Assembly: GCA_036574075.1 (NCBI GenBank)
Contig: JAINCN010000025.1
Span: 3,336 to 67,335 of the forward strand
Origin: Deltaproteobacteria bacterium
GTDB lineage: Bacteria > Desulfobacterota > Dissulfuribacteria > Dissulfuribacterales > UBA5754
DNA length: 64,000 bases
Direction of reading: 5' to 3'
In this document: one piece after another, positions 32,948 to 58,093 of the stretch
Numbering within the stretch: the stretch's first letter is position 1
Layout: each line of letters opens with the position of its first letter
Made by a program: the position numbers and the translations under genes
The notes under the pieces: generated by a model
Told to the model about the DNA's origin: nothing
What the model saw: only the letters and a program-made list of their open reading frames with translations
Databases searched by the model: none

Positions 32948-34117
32948 TCAGTCCGCCTTTTTTCGCAGGAAGGTCGGTCTGTCCAGTTGATCCCAGTCCA
33001 CCTCGTCAAGCGGGGACTGGATCGTGTGAGGCCTTCGGATCTGGCGTTTTGTCTCTGATGGAAACGCAGGGCCAGAGTACCCGGTCTCCTGCTCTGGCCG
33101 GGCCTTTTTCAGGATGTTCAGGTTTCTGACGACCTGTTCATCCGCAGGCTGGCGGAGTTCCGCCCCGATCCCCGTGGCAATGACAGTGACCCGGAGTTCG
33201 TCACCGGCTGCGTCGTCAAAGACCGTCCCCCAGATGATGTTGGCGTCCTCATGGGCCTCGTTGTGGATGAGCATGGAGGCCTCGTCCACCTCGTCCATGG
33301 TGAGATTGGCGCTGCTCGCGGTGATGTTCATGAGGATCCCGCGGGCACCGCTGATGGAGACGTCTTCGAGGAGGGGGTTTGCTATGGCCATCTGGACCGC
33401 CTCTACAGCACGGCGTTCACCCCGGGCAACACCCGTACCCATCAGGGCCATTCCCATTTCTCCCATGACGGTACGGACGTCGGCGAAGTCCACGTTCACG
33501 TATCCGTGGACCACGATGAGGTCCGATATCCCCCTCACCGCATAGTAGAGGACCTCGTCGGCCTTTTTGAACATCTCGTAAAAAGGGGTGTTGGCCTGTG
33601 CAAGTTTGCGGAGACGGTCGTTTGGGATGGTGATGATGGTGTCTACGACCTTTCTGAGACGCTCGATCCCATCCTCCGCCTGTTTCATGCGCCTCTTGCC
33701 CTCGAAGGCGAAGGGTTTGGTGACCACGGCCACCGTAAGGGCGCCGAGTTCCTTGCTGATCTCCGCAATGACCGGGGCGCCTCCCGTACCTGTTCCTCCG
33801 CCCATCCCAGCGGTGATGAAGACCATGTCGCTGCCCTCGATCGCGGAACGGATCTCTTCCGCGCTCTCTTCAGCGGCCTCCCGTCCGACCTCGGGATTGG
33901 CACCGGCCCCGAGGCCTTTGGTCAGGCTTTTGCCGAGCTGGATCTTGACTGCGGCACGGGACATCTCGAGGACCTGGGCGTCCGTGTTTGCGGCGATGAA
34001 CTCCACCCCCCTGAGCTCGGCGGAGATCATATTATTGACCGCGTTTCCTCCCCCGCCGCCGACACCTATTACCTTGATGCGCGCCGTATGTTCTGTATCC
34101 GCGAATTCAAACGACAT
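32948..34117 (-). CDS. ftsZ: cell division protein FtsZ
   Basis: [13 protein letters not shown] and [13 protein letters not shown] tubulin signature. 389 aa. Confidence 0.97.
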
Positions 34118-34154: not shown

Positions 34155-35378
34155 TCAGATGCCGAACCAGGATCGCATGCGGCTGCTGACCCGGTGGAAG
34201 ATGTTCCCGTCCCGAATCCTGAACTGTTTTGACGGCATGTGCTCGGCCCCGTAAAGGACTAGGCCGACTGCAGTTGCGTACATGGGACTGTGGACCACGT
34301 CCACGAGCCCGGTGATCCCTTTGGGATAGCCGATCCGCGTGGGCAGTTGAAAGATCTGGTCTGCGATCTCTGCGATCCCGGGAAGAAGCGATGACCCCCC
34401 GGTGATGACTATGCCTGAGGTGAGATCAGATTTGAGCCCAGTCTTCTGGATCTCCGTATCCACGATGGTGAGGATCTCCTCCACCCGGGGTTCCAGGATC
34501 TCAGCGAGTATGTGGCGGGAGAGCATGCGGGGTTTTCGCCCGCCCACGCTCGGCACCTCGATTACCTCGTCCCGCTGGACAAGGGAGCTGAGACAGGTGC
34601 CGTAGAGAAATTTTATCTTTTCCGCCTCGGCCATGGGGGTCTTGAGGCCGACGGCGATGTCGTTCGTGAGGTTGTTGCCCCCGAGTCCCAGGACGGACGT
34701 GTGTTTGATGGAGCCGTCGATGAATATGCTCAGATCCGTGGTCCCCCCGCCGAAGTCCACGAGGGCGACTCCTAGATCCTTCTCCTCCTGGGTCAGGACG
34801 GCCTCGCCAGAGGCAAGGGGCTGCAGGACGATGTCGATGACGTCAAGTCCCGCCCGGTTCGCGCACTTGATGAGGTTCTGGGCGGCTGTGACCGCACCGG
34901 TCACGATGTGGACCTTGGCCTCAAGCCGGACACCCACCATGCCGACCGGGTCGTGGATGCCGTGCTGGTCGTCGATGATGTATTCCTGGGGAAGGATATG
35001 GATGACTTCCCTGTCTAAGGGGATGGCCACGGCCCGGGCCGCCTCGATCACCCGGTCTACGTCGTCCTGTGTCACTTCCTGGCCCTTGATGGCAATGACG
35101 CCGTGGCTGTTGAAACCCTTGATGTGACTACCAGCGATCCCCACATAGACCTTTCCGATCTCGAAGCCCGCCATGAGTTCGGCCTCTTCCACGGCCTTCT
35201 TGATGGAGGAGACCGTGCTTTCCACGTTTACGACCACGCCCTTGCGCAGACCGTTGGAAGGGTGTGTGCCGACTCCGATGATGTCCATGCCGGCCTCGCC
35301 GGCTTCTCCGACGATGGCGCAGATCTTGGTCGTGCCGATATCGAGGCCGACGACGATGTCAGGGGATCTTGCGGTCAT
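34155..35378 (-). CDS. ftsA: cell division protein FtsA
   Basis: Actin-like ATPase (VGLDIGTTKICAIVGE, VDFGGGTTD). ftsQ-ftsA-ftsZ order. Confidence 0.95.
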   Translation of the reverse strand: MTARSPDIVVGLDIGTTKICAIVGEAGEAGMDIIGVGTHPSNGLRKGVVVNVESTVSSIKKAVEEAELMAGFEIGKVYVGIAGSHIKGFNSHGVIAIKGQEVTQDDVDRVIEAARAVAIPLDREVIHILPQEYIIDDQHGIHDPVGMVGVRLEAKVHIVTGAVTAAQNLIKCANRAGLDVIDIVLQPLASGEAVLTQEEKDLGVALVDFGGGTTDLSIFIDGSIKHTSVLGLGGNNLTNDIAVGLKTPMAEAEKIKFLYGTCLSSLVQRDEVIEVPSVGGRKPRMLSRHILAEILEPRVEEILTIVDTEIQKTGLKSDLTSGIVITGGSSLLPGIAEIADQIFQLPTRIGYPKGITGLVDVVHSPMYATAVGLVLYGAEHMPSKQFRIRDGNIFHRVSSRMRSWFGI

Positions 35379-35391
35379 GTGTTCGGTGTCC

Positions 35392-36216
35392 TCAGTCCTT
35401 CATGCGGACAAGTGCACGGCTGCCGCCCATGTCCAGATCGATGGAATCCACCCGGGAGTAGTTCCCAGAGACGTAAAGTTGATAGAGGATCCTTTCTGCC
35501 CTCTTGAGTTGTTCCTTCAGGTCGGTTTTTGGGGAAAAAAGGAGCGCGATATCCACTCCGCCTGCATATACCACCAGCCCTCCGGATTCTTCAAGGCTGA
35601 TAGATCTAATGGAGGAGAGCCCGCTGGTCTTGGACCCGGATGCGGCAAGGGAGATGAAATCGAGGGCGCTGCGCCATCTCTCCGATAGGCAACCGTTTTG
35701 GATCTCATCCGGGGAGACGTTCGTGAGCCGAGGCAGATCATCCGGGGCAGGGTCGGGCGACGTGAGGATGCGGCCCGTCCGATCCACCAGTTTATCCGTC
35801 CCAATGACGGCCACGGGTTTGCGCTCCTTGACCGAGATCTCGACACGGTCAGGGAGGATCCTCTTGACCGTGCATGTCTCGATCCACGGGTGCCCTTCGA
35901 CCCCTTTTGCAACAGAGGAGAGGTCGATCGAAAGGGTGCTCATGCCGGCAGAGAGGCCGGATGCAGCAAGGATCTCGTCCTGGGGGACGCGAAAGTTCCC
36001 TGAGATGTGGATGTTTGTGAGGCGGAACACGGTGAGATTCTCCACCCAGTGCCCCAGCATGGGGGCCATATAAGCCCCCGCTGCCACGAAGAGACAGACG
36101 AGGATTGCAAGGGCCACCCGTCGAATGATCAGAAAAACACGGAGCCGGCGCCTTCCGGATCCCGGTCTTCGTGGAGATGCCTGGCGGCTCCCGTAGATCA
36201 CGAAACGGCCCTCCAC
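35392..36216 (-). CDS. ftsQ: cell division protein FtsQ
   Basis: N-terminal TM helix, then a POTRA-like segment (FRLTNIHISGNFRVPQDEIL). Position upstream of ftsA. Confidence 0.8.
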   Translation of the reverse strand: MEGRFVIYGSRQASPRRPGSGRRRLRVFLIIRRVALAILVCLFVAAGAYMAPMLGHWVENLTVFRLTNIHISGNFRVPQDEILAASGLSAGMSTLSIDLSSVAKGVEGHPWIETCTVKRILPDRVEISVKERKPVAVIGTDKLVDRTGRILTSPDPAPDDLPRLTNVSPDEIQNGCLSERWRSALDFISLAASGSKTSGLSSIRSISLEESGGLVVYAGGVDIALLFSPKTDLKEQLKRAERILYQLYVSGNYSRVDSIDLDMGGSRALVRMKD

Positions 36217-37100
36217 ACCTCGACCTCCGGTTCGAGCACGATGCCGTGCTCATCGTGGACCTTTCGGTGGACTAGTTGCATGAGGTTCATTACGTCCGAA
36301 AAGGTGGCACCGTCCTGATTGACGATGAAGTTGCCGTGTCGCCTGGAGACCTCCGCCCCTCCAACACGCATGCCCTTGAGGCCAGTCTGATCTATGAACC
36401 AACCTGCCGGTCCTTCTGGTGGATTCTTGAAGATGCAGCCGGCGCTGGGCCTGCCGATGGGCTGGGTGGATACCCGCCTTTTCATGACCTTTTTGATGGT
36501 GGCGAGGATCTCCTTCCTGTTTCCTGGGGCAAGAAGTATTCGAACCCCAGTGACCACGGTGTCCGCAGGGAGCCCTGTTTTTCTGTATCCGTACTTCAAG
36601 TCCTTAGCAGGGACCCATGCGCTTCCTTCAGAACTGGTCAGCAGGACGGATTCCGTGATGTCGCAGATGGACCTGTCACGGGTCCCTGCGTTCACGGCAA
36701 CCGCACCGCCCATGCTCGCTGGGATCCCTGCAAAGGGTTCAAGTCCTGTGAGCCCTGCCCGGACAGACCACGCAATCAGGAAGGGGAGGCTGCATCCCGC
36801 TCCCACAGTCACACGGAACCGCGATCCATCGAGCCTTTCCCATTCAAGGGCTGTGAGCCTCTCGAGCGAGAGGAGGGGGGGATGATGCCCCTCCTCCACA
36901 AGGAGATTGCTCCCCCGTCCGAGGACACGATATGGTAAGCCCGCTTTTGCAAAATGGCGCAGTGTCTGTTCGGTCGCCTTGATGGTCGCGGGACGATATA
37001 CGTCTGCCCTACCCCCGATGCGGAAGGTGGTGAGGCGAAAGAGTCCGCAATCCCGCTGGATGGCGAGGTCTTGAATAGGAGGGGGGTCAGGGATGGACAC
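36198..37100 (-). CDS. murB: UDP-N-acetylenolpyruvoylglucosamine reductase
   Basis: TTFRIGGRADVY and LGRGSNLLV FAD-binding motifs. 300 aa. Confidence 0.93.
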   Translation of the reverse strand: MSIPDPPPIQDLAIQRDCGLFRLTTFRIGGRADVYRPATIKATEQTLRHFAKAGLPYRVLGRGSNLLVEEGHHPPLLSLERLTALEWERLDGSRFRVTVGAGCSLPFLIAWSVRAGLTGLEPFAGIPASMGGAVAVNAGTRDRSICDITESVLLTSSEGSAWVPAKDLKYGYRKTGLPADTVVTGVRILLAPGNRKEILATIKKVMKRRVSTQPIGRPSAGCIFKNPPEGPAGWFIDQTGLKGMRVGGAEVSRRHGNFIVNQDGATFSDVMNLMQLVHRKVHDEHGIVLEPEVEVWRAVS

Positions 37101-38490
37101 AGGTCGCTCTCTCTCGCTGATTTAGAAGGGAGATCAATTTAGGACCGAGGGCACCGATGGACCCGGCTCCCAAGGTAAAGACCACGTCCCCTGGCGCAAG
37201 CGAGACGGATGCCTCGTAAAGGAGGTCCTGGCAGGTCGGGGCGTAGTGGACCGGTCTGTTTCCCACCTCCCGGATACGTCTGGCAAGCCGTTCCCCGCTC
37301 ACGCCCACGATGGGCCTTTCACTTGCGGGATAGATCTCTGTGATCCAGAGTTCGTCCGCATCGGCAAAGGCCGTGGCGAATTCTTCCATAAGGGCGCTCG
37401 TCCTCGTGTACCGGTGGGGTTCAAAGAGGGCGATGATCCTCCTGTCCGGCCAGCAGCCGCGCGCGGCCGCAAGGGTCGCCTTGATCTCCGTGGGGTGATG
37501 GGCATAGTCATCCACGACCAGGATCCCCTGTGGCTCTCCCAGTACCTCAAACCTTCTTCCCACGCCTTCGTAGTCCGCGAGCCCTTTCTGTATGGAGGAA
37601 AAGGGGATGTCGAGCTCGAGACCGACGGCCAAGGCCGCAAGGGAGTTCCGGACGTGATGGATCCCAGGGACCCTGAGGCGGATCTCCCCGATGGGCCTAT
37701 CCCGAAGGTATGCCGTGTAGGAGGACCGCATCCCGTCAAAGGCGATTCCCTGGGCAGTCAAATCCAGGCAGGGGCGTGTTCCGTAGGTCATCACCCTGCC
37801 CGGGAGCCGGGGAAGGACGTCGGAAGCGAGGATCGGATCGTCGCCGCAGAGGATGGAGATCCCGTAGAAGGGTATCCTTTCGAGAAACTCCACAAACGCC
37901 TTTTGGATATCCTGAAGGTCTCTGTAGTGGTCCAGGTGCTCCCGGTCGATGTTGGTGACCACGGCGATGCACGGGCACAGGCGCAGAAAACTTCCGTCGC
38001 TTTCATCCGCCTCGGCCACGAGGAAATCGCCGTTTCCCCAGCAGGCATTGGTCCCGAAGGCCTTGACCATGCCTCCAATGATCATCGTTGGGTCAAGTCC
38101 GCCTGCACGCAGTACTGAAGCCGTCATGGAGGTGGTGCTCGTCTTTCCGTGGGCACCGGCCACTGCTATCCCATATTTCTTGAGCCGCATGAGCCCGGCG
38201 AGCATCTCTGCGCGGGGGATCACCGGAATACCCGCCTCAATGGCCGCCTGGATCTCAGGATTGTCCTCCTTTACAGCAGAGGATACGACGACCACGTCCG
38301 CGCCTTTCACATGCCCTGCCTCGTGTCCCCGCCATATTCGGCCACCGAGGCGTTCGAGTCGGCGCGTTGCGTCGTTTTCCCTGAGATCCGAGCCGCTCAC
38401 CGTGTACCCAAGTTCGAGCAGGACGTGGGCGATCCCGCTCATTCCAATGCCACCGATACCAACAAAATGGATATGTTGTTTTTTATACAT
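37087..38490 (-). CDS. murC: UDP-N-acetylmuramate--L-alanine ligase
   Basis: Start at MYKKQHIHFVGIGGIGMSGIA (ATG at 38490); the ORF is open to 38712 but that part overlaps murG. Mur ligase P-loop AGAHGKTSTT. Confidence 0.93.
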   Translation of the reverse strand: MYKKQHIHFVGIGGIGMSGIAHVLLELGYTVSGSDLRENDATRRLERLGGRIWRGHEAGHVKGADVVVVSSAVKEDNPEIQAAIEAGIPVIPRAEMLAGLMRLKKYGIAVAGAHGKTSTTSMTASVLRAGGLDPTMIIGGMVKAFGTNACWGNGDFLVAEADESDGSFLRLCPCIAVVTNIDREHLDHYRDLQDIQKAFVEFLERIPFYGISILCGDDPILASDVLPRLPGRVMTYGTRPCLDLTAQGIAFDGMRSSYTAYLRDRPIGEIRLRVPGIHHVRNSLAALAVGLELDIPFSSIQKGLADYEGVGRRFEVLGEPQGILVVDDYAHHPTEIKATLAAARGCWPDRRIIALFEPHRYTRTSALMEEFATAFADADELWITEIYPASERPIVGVSGERLARRIREVGNRPVHYAPTCQDLLYEASVSLAPGDVVFTLGAGSIGALGPKLISLLNQRERATCVHP

Positions 38491-39664
38491 GGTCCTTGGC
38501 TTCTTTGCCTTTGATGTCGTTATTGTGTACCCCTTTTCCCCATTCCTTTGAAGCAGGCGAGCCGCGCAGGGCCTCCCCAAGGGAAAGGAGGTGGCGGGCC
38601 ATCTCGTCTGCCGACTCCGGCCTGCCGAACCGGCTGGCCCGCCTTCCCATGGCCATGAGCCGCTCCCTGTCCTCGGCAAGTCCCTGGATCTCGCCAGCCA
38701 GCCTGACCGCACCTATTCCGTCTTCCTGAAAGAAGAGGGCCGCACCGGCAGCCGCGAGCCCTTCGGCATTTGCGTCCTGATGGCCCCCTGCCGCGTGGGG
38801 ATAGGGGATGAGAATGGCGGGTTTGCCAAGGGCAGTGATCTCGGAGATGGTGCCTGCTCCGGCCCGGCATATGACGAGATCGGCCCAGGCGTAATAAGTA
38901 TGGATATCCGTGATGAAGGTAAAGACCCGCGCCGGGACCTGAGAGGTCCTGTACATGCCTTCGATCTCCTCCTGGTTGACAGCACCCGTCTGGTGGACCA
39001 CCTCAAGGGAGACCCCTGACCTCCAGAGGTTTTCTATGGCGGATGCAGCGAGTCTGTTCAGGGACGCCGCCCCTTGGCTTCCTCCCAGGACGAGGATTTT
39101 GAAGGGCCTGCCTCCCGCATCCTGTGAGATGGCCTCTGTTTTGGCAGCAAGGATGGAGGCGCGCACAGGGTTTCCCGTGTGGATCACCTTCTTTCCAGAA
39201 AAGTGGGATGCCGTCTCGGGAAAACTCACGAAAACCAGGTCGGCTAAGCGTGCAGCCATGCGATTGGCAAGGCCCGGCATGGCGTTCTGTTCGTGGATGG
39301 CAGTGGGGATTCCGAGCAGGCGTGCCGCAAGCACCACAGGGCCGGAGACATACCCTCCCACGCCGAGAGCCACGTGGGGAGAAAAGGACCTGAGCCACAG
39401 CGCTGCCCGTGCCGTGTGGATCGGAAGACCTGCAAGGGCGCGTAGCATGGCAAGGGGATTTGTGCCTGCGATGGGGCGGACCGGAAGTATCCGGTGCTCC
39501 CAACCGCGTCCTTTGAGGGCGTCCGTCTCCACAGGCCTTCCGGTGCCTATCCAGAGGACCGTGAGCCTTCGGGACCGGGCAAGGGCATCGGCCACAGCGA
39601 TCGCTGGAAAGACGTGCCCTCCGGTCCCTCCCCCGGCTATGACGAGTCTAAAGGGCGCCTTCAT
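38483..39664 (-). CDS. murG: undecaprenyldiphospho-muramoylpentapeptide beta-N-acetylglucosaminyltransferase
   Basis: IAGGGTGGHVFPAIAVA and EQNAMPG motifs. 393 aa. Its start overlaps the murD stop by 4 nt. Confidence 0.93.
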   Translation of the reverse strand: MKAPFRLVIAGGGTGGHVFPAIAVADALARSRRLTVLWIGTGRPVETDALKGRGWEHRILPVRPIAGTNPLAMLRALAGLPIHTARAALWLRSFSPHVALGVGGYVSGPVVLAARLLGIPTAIHEQNAMPGLANRMAARLADLVFVSFPETASHFSGKKVIHTGNPVRASILAAKTEAISQDAGGRPFKILVLGGSQGAASLNRLAASAIENLWRSGVSLEVVHQTGAVNQEEIEGMYRTSQVPARVFTFITDIHTYYAWADLVICRAGAGTISEITALGKPAILIPYPHAAGGHQDANAEGLAAAGAALFFQEDGIGAVRLAGEIQGLAEDRERLMAMGRRASRFGRPESADEMARHLLSLGEALRGSPASKEWGKGVHNNDIKGKEAKDHV

Positions 39665-41085
39665 GCGTCGACCGCCTCACCGGCCCGGACGGCTTCCATG
39701 AAAACGCATCCCCTTTCCTCGAAGTTCGAGAAGAGGTCGAAGCTTGCGCAGGCCGGGGCAAGCAGGATCACGTCTCCGGGCCGTGCATAGCCCTCTGCCA
39801 TCCGGACGGCGGCGTGCATGACGGCCCGACCGGATGTCTCTCCCTGGATACGGGATATGGGCACATGTCCGTCAAAGACCCGGTGGATGGACTCTGCCTC
39901 CTCCCCGAAGGCGACCACGGCCCGAAGGCGCCCCAGTCCCTTTTCGAGGAGCGGGGTATAGTCCTCCCCTTTGCCCCGTCCGCCCGCAATGAGCACGATG
40001 GGCCGGTCGATGGCGTCCAGGGCACGAAGAACGGATGCCACGTTCGTGGCCTTTGAGTCGTTGTAATAGCTGATCCCGTCCCTTGTGAGGACGAATTCGA
40101 GACGGTGTGCCGGGGCATGGAAGGCACCGATGGTCTGCTGGATGTCTTTGGGGCGTGCGCCTGCAAGACGGGCAAGCAAGATGGCTGCTGCGAGATTTTC
40201 CCTGTTGTGGCGGCCAGGAAGGGACCATCTTTCAAGGGGGTATTCCTCGGTTGCGCCGTCCGGCCACCGGACAACGATCCGCTCCTGCCAGATGGCGGCG
40301 CCCGCATCCAGGCCCGCGCCGTGGCCAAAGGTGAGGATGCAGCCCGGCGACTTCAGGATCCAGGGGGCGAGCTGGGGATCGTCTCGGTTCAGGATCCGGC
40401 ATCCATCCTGCCCGGCGAGATCGAGGATCCTGGCCTTGCTCCGCCCATAGGAGTCCAGATCGGGGTAGCGGTCCAGATGGTCCGGGGCGAGATTGAGCCA
40501 GGCTACCCCGCGCACGGGCGGGATCAATGCCCCGTCCGGAATCGCATCCAGCTGGAAGCTGCTGACCTCGAGGACTGCGACCGTCTTTTCGGTGTGCCCG
40601 TCAAGAAAGCAGGAAAGCGGGGTGCCGATGTTTCCGGCTACCCGGTGGTCTATACCCGCGGCCTCGAGCATGGCGCCCGTGAGTGCCGTGGTAGTGGTCT
40701 TGCCGTTCGTCCCTGTGAGGGCGAGGATCGGGCCCTTCCAGTGGGAGATGGCGAGATCCAGTTCTCCGCGTACCGGTATCCCCCGGAGCCGCGCCTCACT
40801 GATTGCGGGTATCGTTAAGGGGATGCCTGGGCTTACGACCACGAGGTCGGATCGAATGGCGGTCTCCACGCGGTTTGCCCCAGCCTCGATCCCGATCCCG
40901 TTCTCCTTGCAGAACGAGATGAACGTGAAGGGCCATGCATCGAGGGGATGCAGATCGCTCACCGTGACATGGGCGCCCTGAGAGTGGAGCCAGCGGGCTG
41001 CGGCCTGTCCAGACCTCCCGGCCCCGAGCACCAGGACCTTCTTGCCGTCAGGTGTATGGACTTCGGGTTTTGGCAGCATGGTCAT
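39661..41085 (-). CDS. murD: UDP-N-acetylmuramoylalanine--D-glutamate ligase
   Basis: [17 protein letters not shown] Rossmann fold and the [14 protein letters not shown]-loop. 474 aa. Confidence 0.93.
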
Positions 41086-42164
41086 CTGAGTTTGAGGGTG
41101 CTGATGGCTATGAGCCCGAGGATCACCGAAATGATCCAGAATCTGACGATCACCTTGGATTCCTGCCAGCCTCCGAGTTCGAAATGGTGGTGCAGAGGGG
41201 CCATGCGGAAGATCCTTCTCCCATTGGTCGCCTTGAAGTATCCGACCTGCATGATGACGGAGAGTGCCTCAAGGACGAATACCCCGCCCACAATGAGAAG
41301 CAGGATCTCCTGTTTGGCGAGGATCGCCACTGTCCCGAGGACGCCTCCCATGGCAAGGGACCCCACGTCCCCCATGAAGATGCTCGCTGGATGGGCGTTG
41401 TACCAGAGAAAGCCGAGTCCGGCGCCCACCATGGCCCCGCAGAGGATCGTGAGTTCTCCTGCTCCTGAGACCGATGGGATCTGGAGATACGAGGCAAGGG
41501 CCGCGTGTCCGGCCAGATAACTGAAGAGGGCATAGACCGCGGAGGAGACGATAAAGGGGCCTGTGGCAAGGCCGTCCAGCCCGTCTGTGAGATTGACGGC
41601 GTTGGATGCCCCGAGGATCACGAAAAGGGCGAAGACCGTATAGAGGGCAGGGCCCAGATCGGGCCGAAACCCCTTGAAGAATGGGACAGAGAGATGGGTG
41701 TCCCAGGTCCCATGGTGGGCGAGGATGCCCGCTGCCGCAAGCACGATGACCGCCTGACAGGTGAGCTTCCATCTGCCTGCAAGCCCCTTGGAATTTTTCC
41801 GGCGGATCTTTTTCATGTCGTCCACGAGGCCGATGGCGGCAAAACCCAGAAGTATGAAAAGGGAGATCCAGACAAAGAGGTTCGTGAGATCAGACCAGAG
41901 GAGACAGGCACAGGAGATGGCCCCGACGATGAGGATGCCACCCATGCTCGGGGTCCCGGCCTTGATCATGTGCGAGGCCGGGCCGTCGTCCCGGATCACC
42001 TGCCCCATCTGGAACTCCTGCATCTTTCTGATGAACCATGGCCCAAAGGAGAGGACGATGAGGAGGGCGGTGAGGGTCGCGTATACGGTCCGGAAGGTGA
42101 TGTAGCGAAAGACATTGAAAACAGGGATGGATTCATGGAGGGGATAGAGGAGGTGATAGAGCAT
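41082..42164 (-). CDS. mraY: phospho-N-acetylmuramoyl-pentapeptide transferase
   Basis: 360 aa, polytopic. [22 protein letters not shown] and HHHFEL motifs. Confidence 0.95.
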
Positions 42165-42166
42165 GC

Positions 42167-45124
42167 TTACCCCTCCGTTTCTGTGTCATACGCCGCTTCC
42201 AGGGCTTGAATGGCCTTTTCGAGCCGCATTCCTCTGGATCCCTTCACGAGTACGCATGCGTTTTCCGGGATGTGTGCCCGGGCCTCTTGTTGGATCCAGG
42301 AAACGAGATCGCAAGTCTCCGGAAAGACAAGGATGCGGGAGAGGGGAAGCCCTGCCTCCCTGGCCCCACGGCTTACGTCATCCCCATGCGTCCCGCATGC
42401 GATGAGGAGGGAGACGCCATGGCGGGCGGCGGATCTCCCGAGTTCCTGATGGAAAAGGTGGGCGGAATCACCCAGCTCCAGCATGTCACCGAGGATGGCG
42501 ACCCTCGGCCTTGACCCGCTCCAGATGGACAGGGTCTCAAGTGCCGCCTCCATGGAGGCGGGATTGGCGTTGTAGCTGTCATCCATGAGGGTGATCCCGG
42601 ACGGGAGATCCTTCGGGGTAATCCGGCCCGGGAGGGGTTTTGCCAGGGAAAGTCCCTGGATGACCTCGTAATGGGTGAGGCCGACTGCAAGACCCACGGC
42701 TGCAGCCGCAAGGGCGTTTTGAACAGCGGCCCTGCCCATGAGTGGGAAGAGAAAGGAGGTCTCCCGGCCCCGCATGGATATGGTTATCACGGCGCCTTCG
42801 GGATGTGGGGACCAGCCGGGACATGTTACAACGGTCTCGATTTCCCCTTTGGCATGGTCGGCTCCTGAGAGCGTATAGCCGATCTTTCGACAGGAAAGCC
42901 TGTTTGCCCTTTCTACGATGAGTGGTTCGTCCAGATTGACTACAGCGATCCCGTTTTTGCCGTCAAGGGCCTGTAAAAGCGCAGACTTTTCCCGGGCTAC
43001 TGCCTCAACGCTTCCCAGGCCCTCGAGATGCGCGGGTTTCACTGTGGTGACGATACCCACGTCAGGTCCGGCGATGGAGGCGAGCCTGGCGATCTCTCCT
43101 GGCTGATTCATGCCCATCTCGAGGACCATCCAGTCGAGGGGAGGGCGCAACCTGAGGATGCTGAGAGGGAGCCCGATGAGGTTGTTGAGGTTACCGGGGG
43201 TCTTTCCGACCCGCCATCTCTGGGCGAGGACGAGGGCGACGAGTTCCTTCGTCCCGGTCTTGCCGCAGCTTCCGGTTATCCCTACCACCCTGACCCCGAG
43301 GGTCTTTCTGAAAAGCGAGGCAATGGCGCCGAGGGCAAGGAGGGTATCCGGCGCGACAAGGACCGCCGCCTCCGGGGAGGAGGATCGCACCTCGTCCACG
43401 ATTTCGGGACGTCCGTCCTGGATGAGCACGCCAACTGCCCCGGTCCTTACCGCATGGCAGGCAAAGGCGTTGCCGTCGAAGCGGTTTCCGGAAAGGGCGA
43501 CAAAGAGCTCGCCTTTCTGAAGGGAGCGGGTGTCGGTGGTGATGCCGACAGGGACTGCGTCCGGATTTCCAGACAGTATCCGTGCCCCTGCGGCCTGAGC
43601 GATCTGGCGGATGGAGAGGGGAAAGGCATGCGGATTCGGGATCGAGACGGCTTCGCATTCGACAATCGCCTTGGTGGTCTCAGTTAGGTCGTTGAATGGG
43701 AGCCTTGAGGCGCCAATGATTTGATAGGTCTCGTGCCCCTTTCCTGCGATGAGTATGCAATCCCCGGGCCGGGCCTCCTGAACTGCATGGCGGATGGCCT
43801 CCCTCCGATCCGGGATCACCCGTACCCTTTTGCCGTCTTCCTGAGGAAAAGGGGGCTGTGGCAGATGCAATGTGGCTGTGGACTCCCAAAGGCCCTCGCA
43901 CATGTCGTCAAGGATGGCGATGGGGTCCTCGCTCCGGGGGTTGTCCATGGTAAAGACGGCAAGATCCGAGTGATCCCGGGCTATCCTCCCCATGAGCGGC
44001 CTTTTGCCCCGGTCCCTGTCCCCGCCGCACCCAACTACGGTGATGATCCTTTCGGGGCCAAGGGTCCGGAGGGTTTGAAGGACGCGTTCAAGGGCGTCCG
44101 GGGTGTGGGCGTAGTCCACGAAGGCAATGGGCCTGCCGGCGAAAACGACCGGATCCAGCCGGCCAGGCACGCGGCGGACACGGGAGATCCCGGCTGCTAT
44201 GGCGCCGGCGTCCACGCCAAGAGGGAGGACTGCGGCTATGGCCGCAAGGATGTTCATGAGGTTGTGGGCCCCGATGAGGGAGGAGTCAACCTCGATCCTT
44301 CCCGCCGGGGTCTCGACCGTGGCCCGTATGCCTGTGAGGTCCAGGGACAGGTCGGTGGGCCTTACCATGGCCTTGCGACCCATTCCGTAGGTCATGGCAT
44401 GGCCGGAGATGAGATCGCAGAGCCTCTTTCCATATGGGCAGTCGATGTTGATGGCCGAGGCCTTGGGGGCAAGCTCGAGAAAGAGGCGACATTTGGCTGC
44501 AAAATACCCATCCATGGATCCATGGTAGTCCAGGTGGTCATGGGTGAGGTTCGTGAAGACAGCTACGGAAAATTGGCACCCGGCAACCCGCATCTGGTCG
44601 AGGGCGTGGGAGGAGACCTCCATGACCGCCGATCGGGCACCGCGGTCCCGCAGGGAGGCGAGATAGGCCTGCAGACTGACCGCGTCCGGCGTGGTGAGTT
44701 CGGAGGGGGTGACCTCATCTCCAAAGCATCGGTGGATGGTCCCAATAAGGCCGGGCAAGAGTCCGGCCTCATTGAGGATCTCCTTGATGAGAAATGATGT
44801 GGTGGTCTTTCCGTTGGTACCTGTGATGCCGATTAGATGCATGTGCCGGCTTGGATGGCCGTGGAACTCGGCCGCGTATTCGCCGACTGCGCGCCTGACA
44901 TCATCGACTCCGATGACCTCGACCTTGCAGGAGAGATCTCCACGAAGCCGCTCTGCGTCCTCCCGTGGGACGAGGACAGCGACAGCACCTTTTTTGACGG
45001 CCTCGCCTACATAGGTCCTACCGTCCAGCTTCGTGCCCGGAATGGCTGCAAAAAGATATCCCGGACGGACGGCGCGGGAATCGGTTGTAAGCCCGCAAAT
45101 TGGTTTCACCCTGTTTCCCCCCAT
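42167..45124 (-). CDS. murE-murF: fused MurE-MurF (meso-DAP-adding ligase plus D-Ala-D-Ala-adding ligase in one 985-aa ORF)
   Basis: N-terminal half: [16 protein letters not shown]-loop [11 protein letters not shown], and the C-terminal GKGHETYQ of MurE. After a short linker (junction ...[13 protein letters not shown]..., about 43620-43670) comes a complete MurF: [17 protein letters not shown] and P-loop [12 protein letters not shown]. There is no stop codon between the halves. Confidence 0.88.
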
Positions 45125-45231: not shown

Positions 45232-46776
45232 TCAAGGCAGGGAGGCCGCGATCTGGATCCGCGCCTCGGCAAGGCCCACACCCCGGTACGCGGTCTGGTG
45301 AAGCCCGGCCAGGATACTGGAAATGCGGGAGACGTCCCCAATGGTATCCATGACAAGGATGTAAGCGATTTCCGGGGCGTGCCGGGGGGCGAATCCCAGG
45401 GCGAGGAATTGGGCGGCCGTGTTGGTATCAGGCACCCTTCCGGAGACGTAAACAATGGACGGCCCATGCTCGCGGGAAAGTTCCTGCTGGAGGAATATGG
45501 AGGCCTTCTCTGTAATGGGTGGTCCTGCCTTCCCGAGGTCCGAGGCCAATCTCCAGAAGGACGGCGAGGTTTCGTGCTTGGTGAGGGTGATTCGGGGGGT
45601 AACGACCTTACCCCGGTTGATGAGTGCGCAAAAGGCCCGGAGGATCTGTATGGGTGTGGCGCTGAAGCCTTCGGTGAAGGGCTCGCTCCAGGTCCCTTCA
45701 AGGTGGGCGGGTATGCGTCCGGCAGCCTCTCCCTCAAGATCGATTCCAGTTGTCTGCCCGAAGCCCATTCTGGAAAGGGATCCCAGTATGCCGGGCAGGA
45801 TACGGATCTGCTCGATCTCTTCAGCACTCCATGGTGAGAAGATCTCCCTTCCTTGGGGAGAGACCGTCCACTGCCAGGCGTCTTGAGGTGGCCGAGGATA
45901 AGCGGATGGATCAGACTCCGGAGCGCACCCAAGGGATTCGGAGCGGGCTATGAGAAGGGGGATGGGAAACGGATCCACCTCCCCTTGAATGGCGAAATTT
46001 TTCTTGTGGAGGGTCTCTGACACCTGGGGCGCAGAGGGGGAGTCGGAGGGCTTGGCATTGGCCATAGCGAGGATCTCTCCTCTCTCCACATCCATGACAA
46101 TGAAGCATCCTCTGGCTGCCTGCGTGGTATTCAGTGCAGATTGGAGACCCTTTTCCGCTTCCATCTGGAGCCCGCGTTCCAGGCTGAGGATGACGTTGCC
46201 AGGGCCGGTGCGGGAAGGCATGACGCCGCTTTCTCCGAGGAGGTCATCATAAATGTATTCCACCCCGCTTATGCCGTGTCCATCCTCTCCGACGTCTCCT
46301 ATGATCTCGCCTGCCAGGTCTCTATAGGGAGAGATGCGCCTGTAGCTGGTAAGGATTCTTGCCCCGTCCAACCCGAGAGATTCAAGTCTTTCCCGCGCCC
46401 CTTCTCCCGGGTTGACCGCAATGGTGACAGGACCGCGTCCTGACCTGGCAGACCGGAGGAGGGCGTCGGGATCGAGGCCGAGGATGGTGCCCATATCCTT
46501 GGCCCATTCCTTACCCGGGGGCATTTGGGTGGGGTGGATGACAAGGACGTGTTCAGGAATGCTCCCGGCGAGCATTACCCCTGATCGATCGAGGATCGCC
46601 CCCCGGTAAGGCGACAGGGGAATGGAGGTCTGCCGGCAGGTCCCGGAAACGAGACACGTCCCCCCGACCCACATGCAGATGCCCATGGTGACAAAGACGG
46701 GTATGGGACGGATCCTCCGCCGAATGTTGACAGAGAAGAATCGGGCAAGATGCTTAGGGAATGCCGGGGCGTGCAT
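45232..46776 (-). CDS. ftsI: FtsI/PBP3-like class B penicillin-binding protein homologue, catalytic motifs absent
   Basis: N-terminal TM helix. Dimerisation-domain motif YRGAILDRSGVMLA, MDVERGEILAMAN, GFGQTTGIDLEGE and ATPIQILRAFCALINRG all align to PBP3. No S-x-x-K occurs anywhere in the 514 aa, and no SxN or K(T/S)G motif occurs in the C-terminal domain. Confidence 0.8.
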   Translation of the reverse strand: MHAPAFPKHLARFFSVNIRRRIRPIPVFVTMGICMWVGGTCLVSGTCRQTSIPLSPYRGAILDRSGVMLAGSIPEHVLVIHPTQMPPGKEWAKDMGTILGLDPDALLRSARSGRGPVTIAVNPGEGARERLESLGLDGARILTSYRRISPYRDLAGEIIGDVGEDGHGISGVEYIYDDLLGESGVMPSRTGPGNVILSLERGLQMEAEKGLQSALNTTQAARGCFIVMDVERGEILAMANAKPSDSPSAPQVSETLHKKNFAIQGEVDPFPIPLLIARSESLGCAPESDPSAYPRPPQDAWQWTVSPQGREIFSPWSAEEIEQIRILPGILGSLSRMGFGQTTGIDLEGEAAGRIPAHLEGTWSEPFTEGFSATPIQILRAFCALINRGKVVTPRITLTKHETSPSFWRLASDLGKAGPPITEKASIFLQQELSREHGPSIVYVSGRVPDTNTAAQFLALGFAPRHAPEIAYILVMDTIGDVSRISSILAGLHQTAYRGVGLAEARIQIAASLP

Positions 46777-46787
46777 GGAAAGCGGCG

Positions 46788-47153
46788 CTACTGGAGGAGC
46801 CTGACGATTTCCTCATCCTTGGGGGGACGGAGGCCGAGGGCCCTGCCGACCTTCGCCAATTCCTGGGATCTGGTGAGCCGGGCCTCTTCGGCGACAAGGG
46901 CGTCGTGTTCTGCTGCGAGGCGCTTGGACTCGAGCTCCAGGAGTTCGACCCGCTCCGAGACCCTTTTCACAGAGACGTGGGACCAGACGGTCACCGAGAT
47001 GACGAGGATTGCCAAGAGGGTGAGAAGGACGGAGCGCGCGGACAAGACGGCTGATGTCTGCCGTTCCGTACCGTAGATATTGCTCCCCTTGAAGGGATGA
47101 GGTCTTCTTGCCCTATGGACGGTAGGACGTATGGTGGCGGTTCGGATGCTCAT
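46788..47153 (-). CDS. ftsL: cell division protein FtsL
   Basis: 121 aa. A single TM helix followed by a coiled coil (ELLELESKRLAAEHDALVAEEARL). Lies between rsmH and ftsI. Confidence 0.75.
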   Translation of the reverse strand: MSIRTATIRPTVHRARRPHPFKGSNIYGTERQTSAVLSARSVLLTLLAILVISVTVWSHVSVKRVSERVELLELESKRLAAEHDALVAEEARLTRSQELAKVGRALGLRPPKDEEIVRLLQ

Positions 47154-48067
47154 GGCGTTTCTCCTTGCGGAATCGGCTTTGGGTGGATGCGCTCGGCGAT
47201 GCGCAGTTTGGCGCTCCTGGCCCGGGGGTTTGCAGCGATCTCGTCTTCTCCGGGGATGATGGGCCTCTTTGTTACGGGCATCAGGCGTATATCAGAACGG
47301 AAGGCATCCTTTACAAGTCTGTCCTCCAGGGAGTGGAAGGTAATGATGCAGAGCCTGCCTCCTGGCACGAGACATGAGGGAAGTGTGTCAAGGGCGTCCC
47401 GAAGGTTTTCGAGTTCCCGGTTGACGGCGATCCGAAGCGCCTGGAAGGTACGGGTGGCGGGGTGGATGTGTCTGGAATGAAATCGGGCAGGGATTGCGTG
47501 GGATACGACACGGGCCAGGTCCGCAGATGTGAAGATGGGCTGGATCTCGCGCCGCCTGACTATGGCCCCGGCGATCCTCCGTGCCCAGCGTTCCTCCCCG
47601 TAAGTCCGAATGATCTCCTCGATCTGGTCCTTGGGGAGTTCGTTTACCAGATCCGCGGCAGTGACAGACTCGAATCGGTCCATGCGCATATCAAGGAGCT
47701 CCTCCCTCAGGAAGCTGAAGCCCCGTTCCCCGGCCTCGAGCTGAAACGAGGAGAGCCCGAGGTCAAGGACAATGCCGTCCACTCCGTCGATGCCCTGTTC
47801 GAGGAGGAGGTCCGGGATGTCCCGGTAATTTCCATGCACAATGAGGATGCGGTCCGCATGCGCAAGGAGGCGCTTTTGTGCCAGCGCGAGGGCGTCCTGG
47901 TCCCAGTCCATCCCTATGACACGTCCAACCCCGGGGCCGTCTTCGAGGATGGCGCGTGCATGGCCTCCCAGGCCAAGGGTGCCGTCCACGTACACCCCCC
48001 CCGCCCGGAGACGGAGGCCCTCGAGGACCTCTCTCACCATTACGGGGACGTGGACGGGTTCAGGCAC
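47150..48067 (-). CDS. rsmH: 16S rRNA (cytosine1402-N4)-methyltransferase
   Basis: HVPVMVREVLEGL and YVDGTLGLGGHARAIL motifs. A GTG at 48067 overlaps the mraZ stop and puts the conserved His at residue 6, as in known RsmH. The ORF is open further upstream (ATG at 48136, and 48418). Confidence 0.88.
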   Translation of the reverse strand: MPEPVHVPVMVREVLEGLRLRAGGVYVDGTLGLGGHARAILEDGPGVGRVIGMDWDQDALALAQKRLLAHADRILIVHGNYRDIPDLLLEQGIDGVDGIVLDLGLSSFQLEAGERGFSFLREELLDMRMDRFESVTAADLVNELPKDQIEEIIRTYGEERWARRIAGAIVRRREIQPIFTSADLARVVSHAIPARFHSRHIHPATRTFQALRIAVNRELENLRDALDTLPSCLVPGGRLCIITFHSLEDRLVKDAFRSDIRLMPVTKRPIIPGEDEIAANPRARSAKLRIAERIHPKPIPQGETP

Positions 48068-48509
48068 GAAGGCCGGTTCCCGATATGGCTCGGCTGTAGC
48101 TGTCAAAGTTTTCCCGTGCCTTTTTGAGTTCCGCATCCAGGCGTTCCTTGTCCCAGATCTCGAAGTGGGTGAGCATGCCGGAGAGGACGATCTCCTTGTC
48201 GATCCCGGCTGGTTCACGCAGCGTGGGGGGAAGAAGGATCCTTCCGTGGGAGTCGAGGGGGCATTCCAGCCCCCCGGCGATGAAGTAGCGCTGAAAGGCG
48301 AGGACTTCGGGAGGGGCAAAACGGATCCGAGTGAATTCCTCTTCGAGGATGCGCCACTCGTCAAGGGGATAGGCCACGAGGCATTCGGGAAGGTTCGTGA
48401 CGATGAGGCGTTCCTCACCGTACTTGGCCCTCAGGACCTCCCGGAAACGGGCAGGTATGCTCAGACGCCCCTTGGCATCGAGGTTGTGTACGGAACGGCC
48501 CCGGAACAC
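48060..48509 (-). CDS. mraZ: division/cell wall cluster transcriptional regulator MraZ
   Basis: MFRGRSVHNLDAKGRLSIPARFR start with the duplicated SpoVT-AbrB-like DxxGR motif. First gene of the dcw cluster. Confidence 0.93.
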   Translation of the reverse strand: MFRGRSVHNLDAKGRLSIPARFREVLRAKYGEERLIVTNLPECLVAYPLDEWRILEEEFTRIRFAPPEVLAFQRYFIAGGLECPLDSHGRILLPPTLREPAGIDKEIVLSGMLTHFEIWDKERLDAELKKARENFDSYSRAISGTGLRA

Positions 48510-48994: not shown

Positions 48995-50536
48995 TTATTC
49001 CCTGACCGCCTGTCTTACGGCCCTGCAGATCCTCTCCAGGTCCTCCTCTTTGAGGTAAGGGTGCATGGGCAGGCTGAGGACCCTTTCTGCGGCCCTTTCT
49101 GCGACTGGAAAGTCCCCTTTAGCGTACCCAAGGTAGGAGAAGGCGGGCTGCATGTGCAGGGGGATGGGGTAGTGCACGGCCGTGGGGATCCCGTGGCCAT
49201 GGAGTTTTGCCTGTACCCGCTCCCGGTCCTCCACCTGGATGGTGTATTGGGCATAAACGCTCGTGTTCCAGGGTTCGATGTGGGGTACGACCGCCACATC
49301 AGAGAGAAGGACGCTGTAGCGCTGGCCAATGCGCCCTCTGGCCTGGATCTCGCGGGGCAGGATCTCGAGTTTTGCCAGAAGGACGGCGGCCTGGAGGGTG
49401 TCGAGACGGCCGTTGAGCCCAATGACCGCGTGGTGGTAACGGCGGTCCTGGCCGTGGTCCCGAATCCGGCGCATCTTTTCCGCGAGATCCGCGTCGTCAG
49501 TGAGACATGCCCCGCCCTCGCCGTAACAGCCCATAGGCTTGGAAGGGAAGAAGCTCGTGCAGCCGATGGTGGAGAGGGAGCATGAGGGCCTTCCCTTGTA
49601 TGTGGCCCCGAAGCTCTGGGCCGCGTCCTCGACGACCGCAAGCCCGTGTCTTCGGGCGATCTCGTTGATCCGGTCGAAATCCGCGCATTGTCCGTAGAGC
49701 GAGACAGGAAGGATTGCTCTGGTCCTTGGGGTGATGGCGGCATGGATCCCCTGGGGATCTATGTTGTATGTCGCCGGATCGATGTCCACGAACACGGGCC
49801 GCGCCCCGAGGATAGCGATGGTCTCTGCAGTCGCGATGAACGTGAAGGGTGTAGTGATGACCTCGTCGCCAGGGCCGATCCCAAGGGCCATGAGGGCGAT
49901 AAGAAGGGCGTCTGTCCCTGAGGAGACGGCCACACAGTGCCCCACCCCGGCATACCGGGCAAGACGATCCTCCAGCTCTGTCACCTCGGGTCCTGAGACG
50001 TACCGGCCGTGGAGGAGGACGCGGTGAAGGTTTTTTTCCAGGTGAGGCCTTATCTCGTCTTGTTGTGCGGCGAGATCCACAAAGGGGATGGAAGGGGGGG
50101 CAAACGTCCTTTCGCAGTATGCCTCCGGGGTCATGGCCTGTCCCGGTGCCGTCTCGAGTATGGCCGTGTTTCGCGTGAGTATGGCCGCGCCTCCCGGGGG
50201 AAAGCGATCTATGGCGCGAAGGAGTTGGGCGGCCTCCGGGTCCTTGGCGTCCAGGACATCTCCCTCGCCGGACAGGGCCGCAAGCCACTGGACACCTGCG
50301 AGGCATTCCCGGATGATCCCGCTCACGCGAGCGGATGGGTCTTGCCCGGCGTCTCCGACTTCGGATAAAAGATGTGTCCGTAGCCGTTCGCCCAGCCCTT
50401 GAGCAGACCCCACATGGATCCAGGCTCGTCCCCCATGCCCTTGGCAGAGGCGTATGGCCTGTCGGGATGCAGCCGCCTGGGGCGAATTCCTGTCGCAAAG
50501 ATCGATCACGATATCGGTATGGAGTATTATGTCCAT
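48995..50536 (-). CDS. DegT/DnrJ/EryC1/StrS-family sugar aminotransferase with a ~145-aa PIN-like N-terminal extension
   Basis: From about residue 150: IPFVDLAAQQDEIRP, VSSGTDALLIAL, DAAQSFGA and the FFPSKPMGCYGEGG PLP-lysine context. The N-terminus MDIILHTDIVIDL...AAILTRNTAIL resembles a PIN fold; this is a weak, by-eye call. An internal Met at about residue 137 is an alternative start. Confidence 0.8.
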   Translation of the reverse strand: MDIILHTDIVIDLCDRNSPQAAASRQAIRLCQGHGGRAWIHVGSAQGLGERLRTHLLSEVGDAGQDPSARVSGIIRECLAGVQWLAALSGEGDVLDAKDPEAAQLLRAIDRFPPGGAAILTRNTAILETAPGQAMTPEAYCERTFAPPSIPFVDLAAQQDEIRPHLEKNLHRVLLHGRYVSGPEVTELEDRLARYAGVGHCVAVSSGTDALLIALMALGIGPGDEVITTPFTFIATAETIAILGARPVFVDIDPATYNIDPQGIHAAITPRTRAILPVSLYGQCADFDRINEIARRHGLAVVEDAAQSFGATYKGRPSCSLSTIGCTSFFPSKPMGCYGEGGACLTDDADLAEKMRRIRDHGQDRRYHHAVIGLNGRLDTLQAAVLLAKLEILPREIQARGRIGQRYSVLLSDVAVVPHIEPWNTSVYAQYTIQVEDRERVQAKLHGHGIPTAVHYPIPLHMQPAFSYLGYAKGDFPVAERAAERVLSLPMHPYLKEEDLERICRAVRQAVRE

Positions 50537-56831: not shown

Positions 56832-56949
56832 AAAACCCTTGCCCCTTTTTACCTGGATGGTGTAGTCTCACACCATTTTCTGCCCTTGCCGCGTTCTCTT
56901 GATCGACACGAGAGATCCGGAACGCGGCTGGCGATCTCGAGGAAGGACC

Positions 56950-58020: not shown

Positions 58021-58093
58021 TGACATCTTGCCCTTGGGAATAACGGCCTGCCCCTTCTGCCAGCACGGCGCTCTCGATTTGCCCGGACAGGTG

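Follow-up and report, generated by a model that had tools for sequence, protein, structure and literature searches.

We identified a complete dcw (division and cell wall) operon on the minus strand of a 64-kb stretch of contig JAINCN010000025.1 from a Deltaproteobacteria bacterium, referred to here as the window. The gene in the ftsI position of this operon encodes a homologue of FtsI/PBP3, a penicillin-binding protein (PBP) of class B, with none of the three transpeptidase motifs (SxxK, SxN and KTG). The operon consists of mraZ, rsmH, a putative ftsL, the ftsI homologue, murE-murF, mraY, murD, murG, murC, murB, ftsQ, ftsA and ftsZ, as identified by Pfam, with gene calls from an independent assembly of this sequence by Logan. 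The ftsI homologue lies between ftsL and murE, the canonical FtsI slot (order mraZ-rsmH-ftsL-ftsI-murEF), and its product is identical to the NCBI entry 'MAG: hypothetical protein K6360_04045 [Deltaproteobacteria bacterium]'. An open reading frame (ORF) of 514 amino acids had been reported here, without its strand, by a first-pass annotation made from the sequence alone; the ORF is present and lies on the minus strand. The gene and the parts of its product are as follows:

45232..46776, minus strand: ftsI homologue (class B PBP/FtsI homologue, 0/3 transpeptidase motifs), ATG start, 514 codons
46639..46707, minus strand: N-terminal transmembrane (TM) anchor, residues ~24-46, hydrophobic segment PIPVFVTMGICMWVGGTCLVSG, helix 24-46 in the AlphaFold2 model
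46225..46614, minus strand: pedestal/PBP_dimer domain, residues 55-184 (Pfam PF03717, E 4e-8)
45235..46191, minus strand: transpeptidase-like domain, residues 196-514, no PASTA domain (full-length alignment to PBP3, Foldseek)
45955..45966, minus strand: former SxxK site, P271-I-P-L274, at the N-terminus of helix 271-283 (alignments and AlphaFold2 model)
45832..45840, minus strand: former SxN site, F313-S-P315 by MAFFT or W316-S-A by HMMER pairwise alignment
45463..45471, minus strand: former KTG site, E436-H-G438, placement uncertain by a few residues

Judged by sequence and by modeling, the product of 45232..46776 is a full-length class B PBP homologue with a predicted TM anchor, a pedestal domain and a PBP3-like fold. 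The Pfam PBP_dimer family (PF03717) matches residues 55-184 with 34.3 bits (cutoff 24.4). The Transpeptidase family (PF00905) also matches, with 46.1 bits (cutoff 22.1), as a fragment only that aligns residues 334-397 to positions 123-186 of the 299-position profile. NCBIfam yields sub-threshold matches only, to the SpoVD, PBP2 and FtsI models. A phmmer search of PDB sequences aligns residues ~45-478 to Pseudomonas aeruginosa PBP3 (E ~2e-20). An AlphaFold2 model based on a 76-sequence alignment has a mean predicted local distance difference test (pLDDT) of 75.7 and a predicted template-modeling (pTM) score of 0.76, and the best matches of this model in a Foldseek search of the PDB are full-length PBP3 structures and Clostridioides difficile SpoVD (E ~1e-27, TM-score ~0.6). 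Identity to canonical FtsI is 22-27% (20-24% in the Foldseek alignments). The first-pass annotation had aligned the protein to class B PBPs through the TM anchor and dimerization domain. Pfam, phmmer and AlphaFold2/Foldseek agree with it on this, and every peptide that it quoted is present (YRGAILDRSGVMLA at residue 57, MDVERGEILAMAN at 228, VDPFPIPL at 267, GFGQTTGIDLEGE at 338, ATPIQILRAFCALINRG at 373 and SGRVPDT at 445).

The catalytic motifs are replaced at positions that are otherwise nearly invariant. We aligned 72 canonical class B PBPs with the window protein and its three nearest relatives using MAFFT (n = 76). In the canonical proteins the Ser and Lys of SxxK, the Ser of SxN and the G-K-T-G-T segment are conserved at 96-100%, the SxxK Ser and Lys at 100%. 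At the same columns, the window protein and its relatives carry P/I, L, F and REHGP/APVFT. HMMER pairwise alignment to P. aeruginosa PBP3 sets EPGSTVKP opposite DPFPIPLL, so that Ser becomes Pro271 and Lys becomes Leu274, with SSN opposite W-S-A and KSGT in a gap adjoining G-P-S. Pro271 is the first residue of helix 271-283 in the AlphaFold2 model, where true PBPs hold the nucleophile. The loss of the catalytic Ser and Lys, originally read by eye from VDPFPIPL, is therefore reproduced by both HMMER and MAFFT.

Regular expressions, which are independent of any alignment, detect zero S..K and zero K[ST]G in the 514 residues, and the sole S.N falls at residue 15 in the cytoplasmic tail. This accords with the earlier statements that the protein has no SxxK and its C-terminal domain no SxN. 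In shuffled sequences the chance absence of these short patterns is not rare (P(0) = 0.39, 0.51 and 0.86). The signal of motif loss comes instead from where it occurs, in a protein of evident homology and at aligned columns that are invariant elsewhere. The loss of KTG was also called correctly, although its position was not: the segment had been placed at SGRVPDT (445-451), while the true equivalent is at ~435-442 (REHGPSIV), by the model strand 440-445 and ~8-10 residues N-terminal. This leaves the conclusion of motif loss unchanged, and three independent alignment methods uncover no intact triad that had been mis-aligned.

Under established PBP chemistry, the loss of SxxK, SxN and KTG would make acyl-enzyme formation impossible, which argues that the gene product is a pseudo-transpeptidase, a pseudoenzyme derivative of FtsI. 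By analogy with that chemistry, the protein should be unable to acylate the D-Ala-D-Ala stem peptide, to cross-link peptidoglycan or to bind beta-lactams covalently. As an FtsI homologue that fails three defining features of D,D-transpeptidases, it should not carry annotation as an active PBP3.

The three pedestal motifs are intact in the window protein, as R58-G-A-I-L-D63-R64, R147-I-S-P150-Y and G168-I-S-G171-V-E173 (compare RGxIxDRNG, RxYPxG and GxxGxE), and their residues are invariant across six distant FtsI homologues with 0/3 motifs, hereafter dead FtsIs. Among 33 members of the family most similar to the window protein (window-type members), positions conserved in at least 90% include R58, I61, D63, R64, L69, R147, P150, G168, G171 and E173. 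Conservation at this level is also found in the first strands of the transpeptidase fold, a GF.P...P segment, a GxGxxTGIDLxxE..G loop and the P375-Q377-F382 helix. None of the residues in the former SxxK, SxN or KTG segments is conserved across the same 33 members. Cys383, within an 'AFC' motif, was considered as an alternative nucleophile and is likewise not conserved across them. A substitute nucleophile is therefore unlikely. Columns conserved in canonical class B PBPs are retained by the window protein at 21 of 25 positions in the pedestal and at three of 12 between SxxK and SxN. A C-terminal PASTA domain is kept in dead FtsIs of the Desulfobulbales and Thermodesulfobacteriaceae (L007:4867-6858, L015:5024-6907, L021:4911-6872 and P0269) and is lost in the window protein, in Dissulfurimicrobium and in several other window-type members.

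Orthologues of the gene occur in the assemblies of other samples with 83% and 88% identity. One of these, also 514 amino acids in length and originating from the metagenome of a hydrocarbon-degrading culture, was recovered in the JGI, ENA and Logan assemblies. Using the method of Nei and Gojobori, the ratio of nonsynonymous to synonymous substitution rates (dN/dS) relative to the 83% orthologue is 0.19. The neighboring genes give 0.19 (murEF), 0.25 (murD), 0.19 (murG), 0.18 (murB) and 0.25 (ftsL) in the same comparison. Within the gene, and for this one orthologue pair, dN/dS is 0.15 in the transpeptidase-like part and 0.37 in the pedestal. The codon-position GC content (GC3 periodicity) is uniform along the gene. 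The gene is thus kept under purifying selection in the range of the neighboring mur genes.

The first-pass annotation overlooked that ftsW is absent from the cluster. The genes surrounding the ftsI homologue are:

48060..48509, minus strand: mraZ (Pfam MraZ)
47150..48106, minus strand: rsmH (mraW), 318 amino acids (Pfam Methyltransf_5, E 7e-105; gene call)
46788..47153, minus strand: putative ftsL, 121 amino acids, between rsmH and the ftsI homologue (Pfam FtsL matches weakly, E 0.0099, short of the curated cutoff)
42167..45124, minus strand: murE-murF fusion, 985 amino acids (two full Mur ligase domain sets in a single ORF)
41082..42164, minus strand: mraY (Pfam Glycos_transf_4 and MraY_sig1)
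39661..41085, minus strand: murD (Pfam MurD-like_N and Mur ligase M/C)
39661..39664, minus strand: murD/murG junction, a 4-nt overlap, the usual place of ftsW being empty (ORF coordinates)
38483..39664, minus strand: murG (Pfam Glyco_transf_28 N and C domains)
37087..38442, minus strand: murC, 451 amino acids (Pfam Mur ligase domains; gene call)
36198..37100, minus strand: murB (Pfam MurB_C and FAD_binding_4)
35392..36201, minus strand: ftsQ (Pfam POTRA_1 and FtsQ_DivIB_C)
34155..35378, minus strand: ftsA (Pfam FtsA and SHS2_FTSA)
32948..34117, minus strand: ftsZ (Pfam Tubulin and FtsZ_C)

The murD and murG coding regions overlap by four nucleotides exactly at the normal location of ftsW. No gene of the SEDS family, to which FtsW belongs, was identified in the window by tblastn with six FtsW queries from canonical loci. 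A Pfam scan of the other sizeable ORFs in the window found no PBP, SEDS protein or L,D-transpeptidase, and no class A PBP was seen in the window in such scans. An absence from the cluster is not an absence from the genome, as in Bacilli ftsW is located outside the dcw cluster. In Desulfobulbaceae, an mre-pbpA-rodA cluster but no ftsW has been reported for the Electrothrix and Desulfobulbus genomes (PMC7873302), and in Thermodesulfobacteria ftsW has been reported lost from the dcw cluster (PMC8871954). The loci analyzed here reproduce the loss in both groups.

The sequences nearest to the window come from the metagenome of a short-chain-alkane-degrading culture (SCADC, SRR636559) and from a metagenome-assembled genome (MAG) of Dissulfurimicrobium sp. 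The latter is the nearest named relative, with 30% identity in FtsI and 71% in MraY, and it shares the 0/3 motifs, the murE-murF fusion and the murD-murG junction. A scan of genome contigs with an alignment of the four nearest proteins returned no relative, and the best match in a MraY scan of GTDB species representatives was 64% (a Desulfurivibrionaceae MAG), which is no close relative. The lineage of the window is poorly represented, and both it and Dissulfurimicrobium sp. are seemingly absent from the scanned genome collection.

Our comparison set was 80 dcw loci from this MraY scan. A 0/3-motif FtsI with abutting murD and murG was also identified in a Desulfurivibrionaceae MAG and in an uncultured 'delta proteobacterium'. 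Searching with the Desulfurivibrionaceae protein recovered 91 Desulfobulbales-type homologues (P0142-P0233 and P0239) with 0/3 motifs in all, among them the isolates Thiovibrio frasassiensis, Thiovibrio sp. JS02 and Desulfurivibrio sp. D14AmB. The canonical proteins lower in the same list all have 3/3 motifs with the exception of one at 2/3. With a profile built from six dead FtsIs, the matches were essentially the canonical ones of the initial homologue search, and the Desulfobulbales proteins were missed. A window-type profile, run exhaustively with HMMER against 1.84 billion representatives, identified ~33 clusters (at 50% identity), all with 0/3 motifs and with 24-31% identity to the window protein, one of which is from a Thermodesulfobacteriaceae MAG. 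Both sets of homologues thus lack the motifs throughout, a point on which the first-pass annotation had suggested a check. Five of the HMMER-found loci were seen in context (Thiovibrio, the Thermodesulfobacteriaceae MAG and three other MAGs), and each has the order ftsL-ftsI-murE/F-mraY-murD-murG with ftsW missing (5/5).

A SEDS gene is present in the cluster in all 50 loci with a 3/3-motif FtsI and in none of the ten non-redundant loci with a 0/3-motif FtsI. Those ten, among which are Dissulfurimicrobium, a Thermodesulfobacteriaceae MAG, Desulfurivibrionaceae and the isolate Thiovibrio frasassiensis, all have the gene order just given. Motif status was scored by alignment; by this scoring, Acidobacteria and some Gammaproteobacteria, which carry SxD or SxQ and appeared to have no triad by regular expression, are not taken to lack it. 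The Candidatus Electrothrix locus, in which FtsI has 0/3 motifs and there is no SEDS match, was left out of the ten-locus count as it has no murG. Genes are inserted after mraY and murD in this locus (L021:11080-16047), and they were ruled out as SEDS candidates, encoding a helix-turn-helix protein, a protein with a weak PLA1-like match and a GH5 cellulase. The insertions agree with the interrupted dcw cluster described for cable bacteria (PMC7873302). An apparent FtsW-MurG fusion (L010:12325-14670) proved to be an artefact of murG ORF extension, since the SEDS match is in another reading frame. Similar murG-labelled ORFs of 700-780 amino acids occur in L024, L039, L062, L063 and L075; the frame check was made for L010 alone.

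A neighbor-joining tree of concatenated MraY, MurD, MurG and MurC (1579 columns, 100 bootstraps) places all eight dead-FtsI genomes in a single clade with 95% bootstrap support. The clade has two fully supported halves, one with the window, Dissulfurimicrobium, Thermodesulfobacteriaceae and one MAG, and the other with the Desulfobulbales. Outside it are the Desulfobacterales-, Desulfuromonadales-, Syntrophales (Smithella)- and Desulfovibrio-type loci that were sampled, all with canonical FtsI and ftsW. Both halves also share derived residues of an 'L-x-AFC-x-L' helix (L379, F382 and L385) that are rare in canonical FtsI. A dead FtsI with a missing ftsW is therefore a trait of one deep clade and not a peculiarity of a single genome, which the first-pass annotation, with only this stretch in view, had not noticed. 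On the strength of the species-level tree, and of the ftsW loss common to these genomes, the most parsimonious reading of these sequences is that the trait has a single origin, in an ancestor common to the dead-FtsI genomes sampled. A Thermodesulfobacteriota MAG, BMS9Abin23, has an FtsI (L025:1723-3684) that is canonical (SVLK, SSN) except for K-T-A in place of K-T-G, on a contig that ends before murD. This protein might be near the transition from canonical to dead FtsI.

Several further features of these loci were noted. The murE-murF fusion is also found in Dissulfurimicrobium, the Thermodesulfobacteriaceae MAG, Ca. Electrothrix and other dead-FtsI loci, and is not found in Desulfurivibrionaceae, Thiovibrio or L092. 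Such MurE-MurF chimeras have been described before, delta-proteobacteria included (PMC10214165). At the ftsL position, most related dead-FtsI loci have an ORF of 119-126 amino acids with no Pfam match (85 amino acids in Thiovibrio). The upstream neighbor of mraZ in the window is a DegT-type aminotransferase gene (48995-50536), and in two related loci a YceG/MltG-family gene is directly upstream of mraZ (L088:6799-7917 and L090:6904-7962). Outside the operon, a minus-strand ORF of 604 amino acids (54086-55900) has weak Mur_ligase_M and Mur_ligase_C domains. Its L004 orthologue also has a FOL3_C match, so the protein is probably not a peptidoglycan ligase but a FolC-like folylpolyglutamate synthase. 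A plus-strand ORF (55458-56831) with weak multihaem cytochrome c3/c7 matches is overlapped by two minus-strand ORFs with no Pfam match, 55869-56768 (299 amino acids) and 56629-58026 (465 amino acids), so that gene calling in this region is ambiguous. A diderm envelope is indicated by two proteins encoded in the window, LptE and a member of the OmpA family.

We propose that the window protein is a pseudo-transpeptidase kept as a non-catalytic subunit of the divisome that couples it to a peptidoglycan synthase encoded elsewhere in the genome than the dcw cluster, and we put the probability of this reading at roughly 0.75. This descendant of FtsI/PBP3 retains its predicted membrane anchor, its pedestal (non-penicillin-binding) module and, in the model, the overall transpeptidase fold, and has lost the Ser nucleophile and Lys general base of SxxK together with SxN and KTG, in co-occurrence with the loss of ftsW from the cluster. 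Its role would then be structural or regulatory. The TM helix and pedestal would link FtsQ and FtsL, and through them FtsA and FtsZ, to a synthase supplying polymerization and cross-linking, which may be a RodA-PBP2 elongasome pair, a relocated SEDS protein or a class A PBP. Such a subunit is plausible because there are precedents. In Bacillus subtilis the catalytically inactive PBP2B(S309A) supports division if PBP3 is present (PMC5656894), and C. difficile divides without FtsW/FtsI, via a class A PBP (PMC10693644). The alignments, the fold model, the selection analysis and the comparative genomics all support the earlier suggestion of a catalytically dead PBP kept at the canonical divisome position, and the 'scaffold or regulator' role offered with it is consistent with the strict retention of the three pedestal motifs and the unconserved former active site. 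Septum construction in these bacteria probably departs from the textbook scheme.

Several observations weigh against this proposal. The AlphaFold2 model is only moderately confident in the degenerate segments (pLDDT below 50 at residues 248-253, 286-300 and 411-419), and the alignment within them may be off by a few residues. Beyond the 64-kb window there could be an active FtsI paralogue and a relocated ftsW. As for its history, the window protein scores 175 bits against a profile of canonical FtsI and 110 bits against one of Desulfobulbales-type dead FtsIs, which lends no support to a single origin, and the tree is a simple neighbor-joining analysis of linked dcw genes. Lastly, the perfect association of dead FtsI with ftsW loss represents one phylogenetic event, not ten.

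More tentatively, the proposal may be extended to the whole deep diderm clade, sampled here as Thermodesulfobacteriaceae, Dissulfurimicrobium-type bacteria and Desulfobulbales, the last with Thiovibrio and a cable-bacterium genome among them. This clade might have no FtsW-FtsI septal synthase at all, with FtsI having become a pseudo-transpeptidase after the loss of ftsW and serving as an adaptor that places RodA-PBP2 or a class A PBP under midcell control by FtsQLB, FtsA and FtsZ.

The identity of the partner separates two more specific versions of the proposal. In the first, which we consider possible at somewhat less than even odds, the dead FtsI would be an allosteric pedestal activator and midcell recruiter of a SEDS protein, either RodA shared with the elongasome or a relocated FtsW, and cross-links would be made by PBP2, class A PBPs or L,D-transpeptidases. 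The three pedestal motifs and the TM anchor are strictly kept across the family, as would be expected for such an adaptor. The PBP2B mutant described above still supports division with a dead transpeptidase domain (PMC5656894), and the mre-pbpA-rodA cluster is kept in Desulfobulbaceae (PMC7873302). However, no SEDS gene was seen in the window or in any related dead-FtsI locus, and in the single orthologue pair compared the pedestal is the part of the gene under the weakest constraint (dN/dS 0.37).

The second version, which seems to us the less likely of the two, is that septation is driven by a class A PBP as in C. difficile (PMC10693644), with the dead FtsI having no SEDS partner and acting only as a structural member of an FtsQLB-type complex for assembly or hydrolase signaling. 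The reported absence of ftsW from Desulfobulbaceae genomes is in line with this, and the conserved GxGxxTGIDLxxE loop and P375-Q377-F382 helix could form an interaction surface. However, retention of SEDS-type pedestal motifs would be less expected, and no class A PBP was seen in the window, nor anything tying one to the dead FtsI.

It is very improbable that the protein is still an enzyme, either a transpeptidase or hydrolase with non-canonical catalytic residues or a canonical one whose motifs were mis-aligned. The overall fold and domain size are retained in the model, and the transpeptidase-like domain is under strong purifying selection (0.15). However, S..K and K[ST]G are absent from the whole protein, three independent alignment methods agree on the substitutions, and the Pfam Transpeptidase match is limited to profile positions 123-186 of 299. 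In addition, the 33 family members share no conserved polar residue where the active site used to be, and the only nearby Cys (C383) is not conserved. A decaying pseudogene or an assembly or frameshift artefact, as the strong divergence from canonical FtsI (22-27% identity) and the loss of every motif might suggest, is hardly credible and is refuted by a 514-residue ORF that is uninterrupted in three independent assemblies, by uniform GC3 periodicity, by a dN/dS of 0.19 that equals that of neighboring mur genes, and by the persistence of the family across many lineages at 24-31% identity with equal length and domain order.

The FtsW-FtsI pair, a major antibiotic target, is regarded as the essential and nearly universal machinery by which septal peptidoglycan is made. 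To our knowledge, the only well-studied exception is that of Clostridioides/Clostridia (published in 2023), in which the dcw-encoded enzymes are still active. In the FtsI homologue described here, inactivation appears to be natural and complete, yet the protein has been conserved across a very deep divergence, with ftsW gone from the cluster. Among the members of this clade are environmentally important and cultured ones, namely the isolate Thiovibrio frasassiensis, Desulfurivibrionaceae, a cable-bacterium genome and a Thermodesulfobacteriaceae MAG. If our reading is correct, the scaffolding and catalytic functions of a class B PBP have been split naturally and anciently. These bacteria would then offer a natural system for a catalysis-independent role of the division PBP, hitherto seen only with engineered point mutants, and could show how that role works, which surfaces it needs and which synthase is under its control. 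A further prediction is that the septation of these organisms has an intrinsic insensitivity to beta-lactams specific for PBP3.

The loss of ftsW is already known from the literature. The reports on Desulfobulbaceae and cable bacteria (PMC7873302) and on Thermodesulfobacteria (PMC8871954) concern the same clade and the same missing gene as this work. However, both treat FtsI as a normal active enzyme, neither mentions the loss of SxxK, SxN and KTG, and the lineage of the window is not covered by them. Our searches of the literature available to us, for a natural class B PBP without SxxK and for a dead FtsI in Desulfobulbales or Thermodesulfobacteria, found no description of either.

The window protein resembles FtsI/PBP3 (P. 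aeruginosa PBP3, PDB 3PBN/7ONK, and E. coli FtsI) in its gene position (ftsL-ftsI-murE), in its predicted TM helix, pedestal and modeled transpeptidase fold, and in its intact pedestal motifs, and these proteins are its best sequence and structure matches. It differs from them in the replacement of the three catalytic motifs, the lack of a cognate ftsW in the cluster, an identity of 20-24% and a Transpeptidase profile match reduced to a 64-residue fragment. The role proposed for it resembles that of B. subtilis PBP2B(S309A), in which a division class B PBP has an essential structural role independent of catalysis. However, PBP2B(S309A) is a laboratory point mutant in a cell that keeps FtsW and a back-up class B PBP, while the inactivation seen here is natural, extends to all three motifs, and is ancient and clade-wide. 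C. difficile and other Clostridia resemble the dead-FtsI clade in that septal peptidoglycan synthesis would not rely on a dcw-encoded FtsW-FtsI synthase. In C. difficile, however, the dcw pair SpoVE-SpoVD is catalytically intact and specialized for sporulation, whereas in the dead-FtsI clade, which is diderm and non-sporulating, the SEDS gene is gone and the class B PBP, although apparently dead, has been kept.

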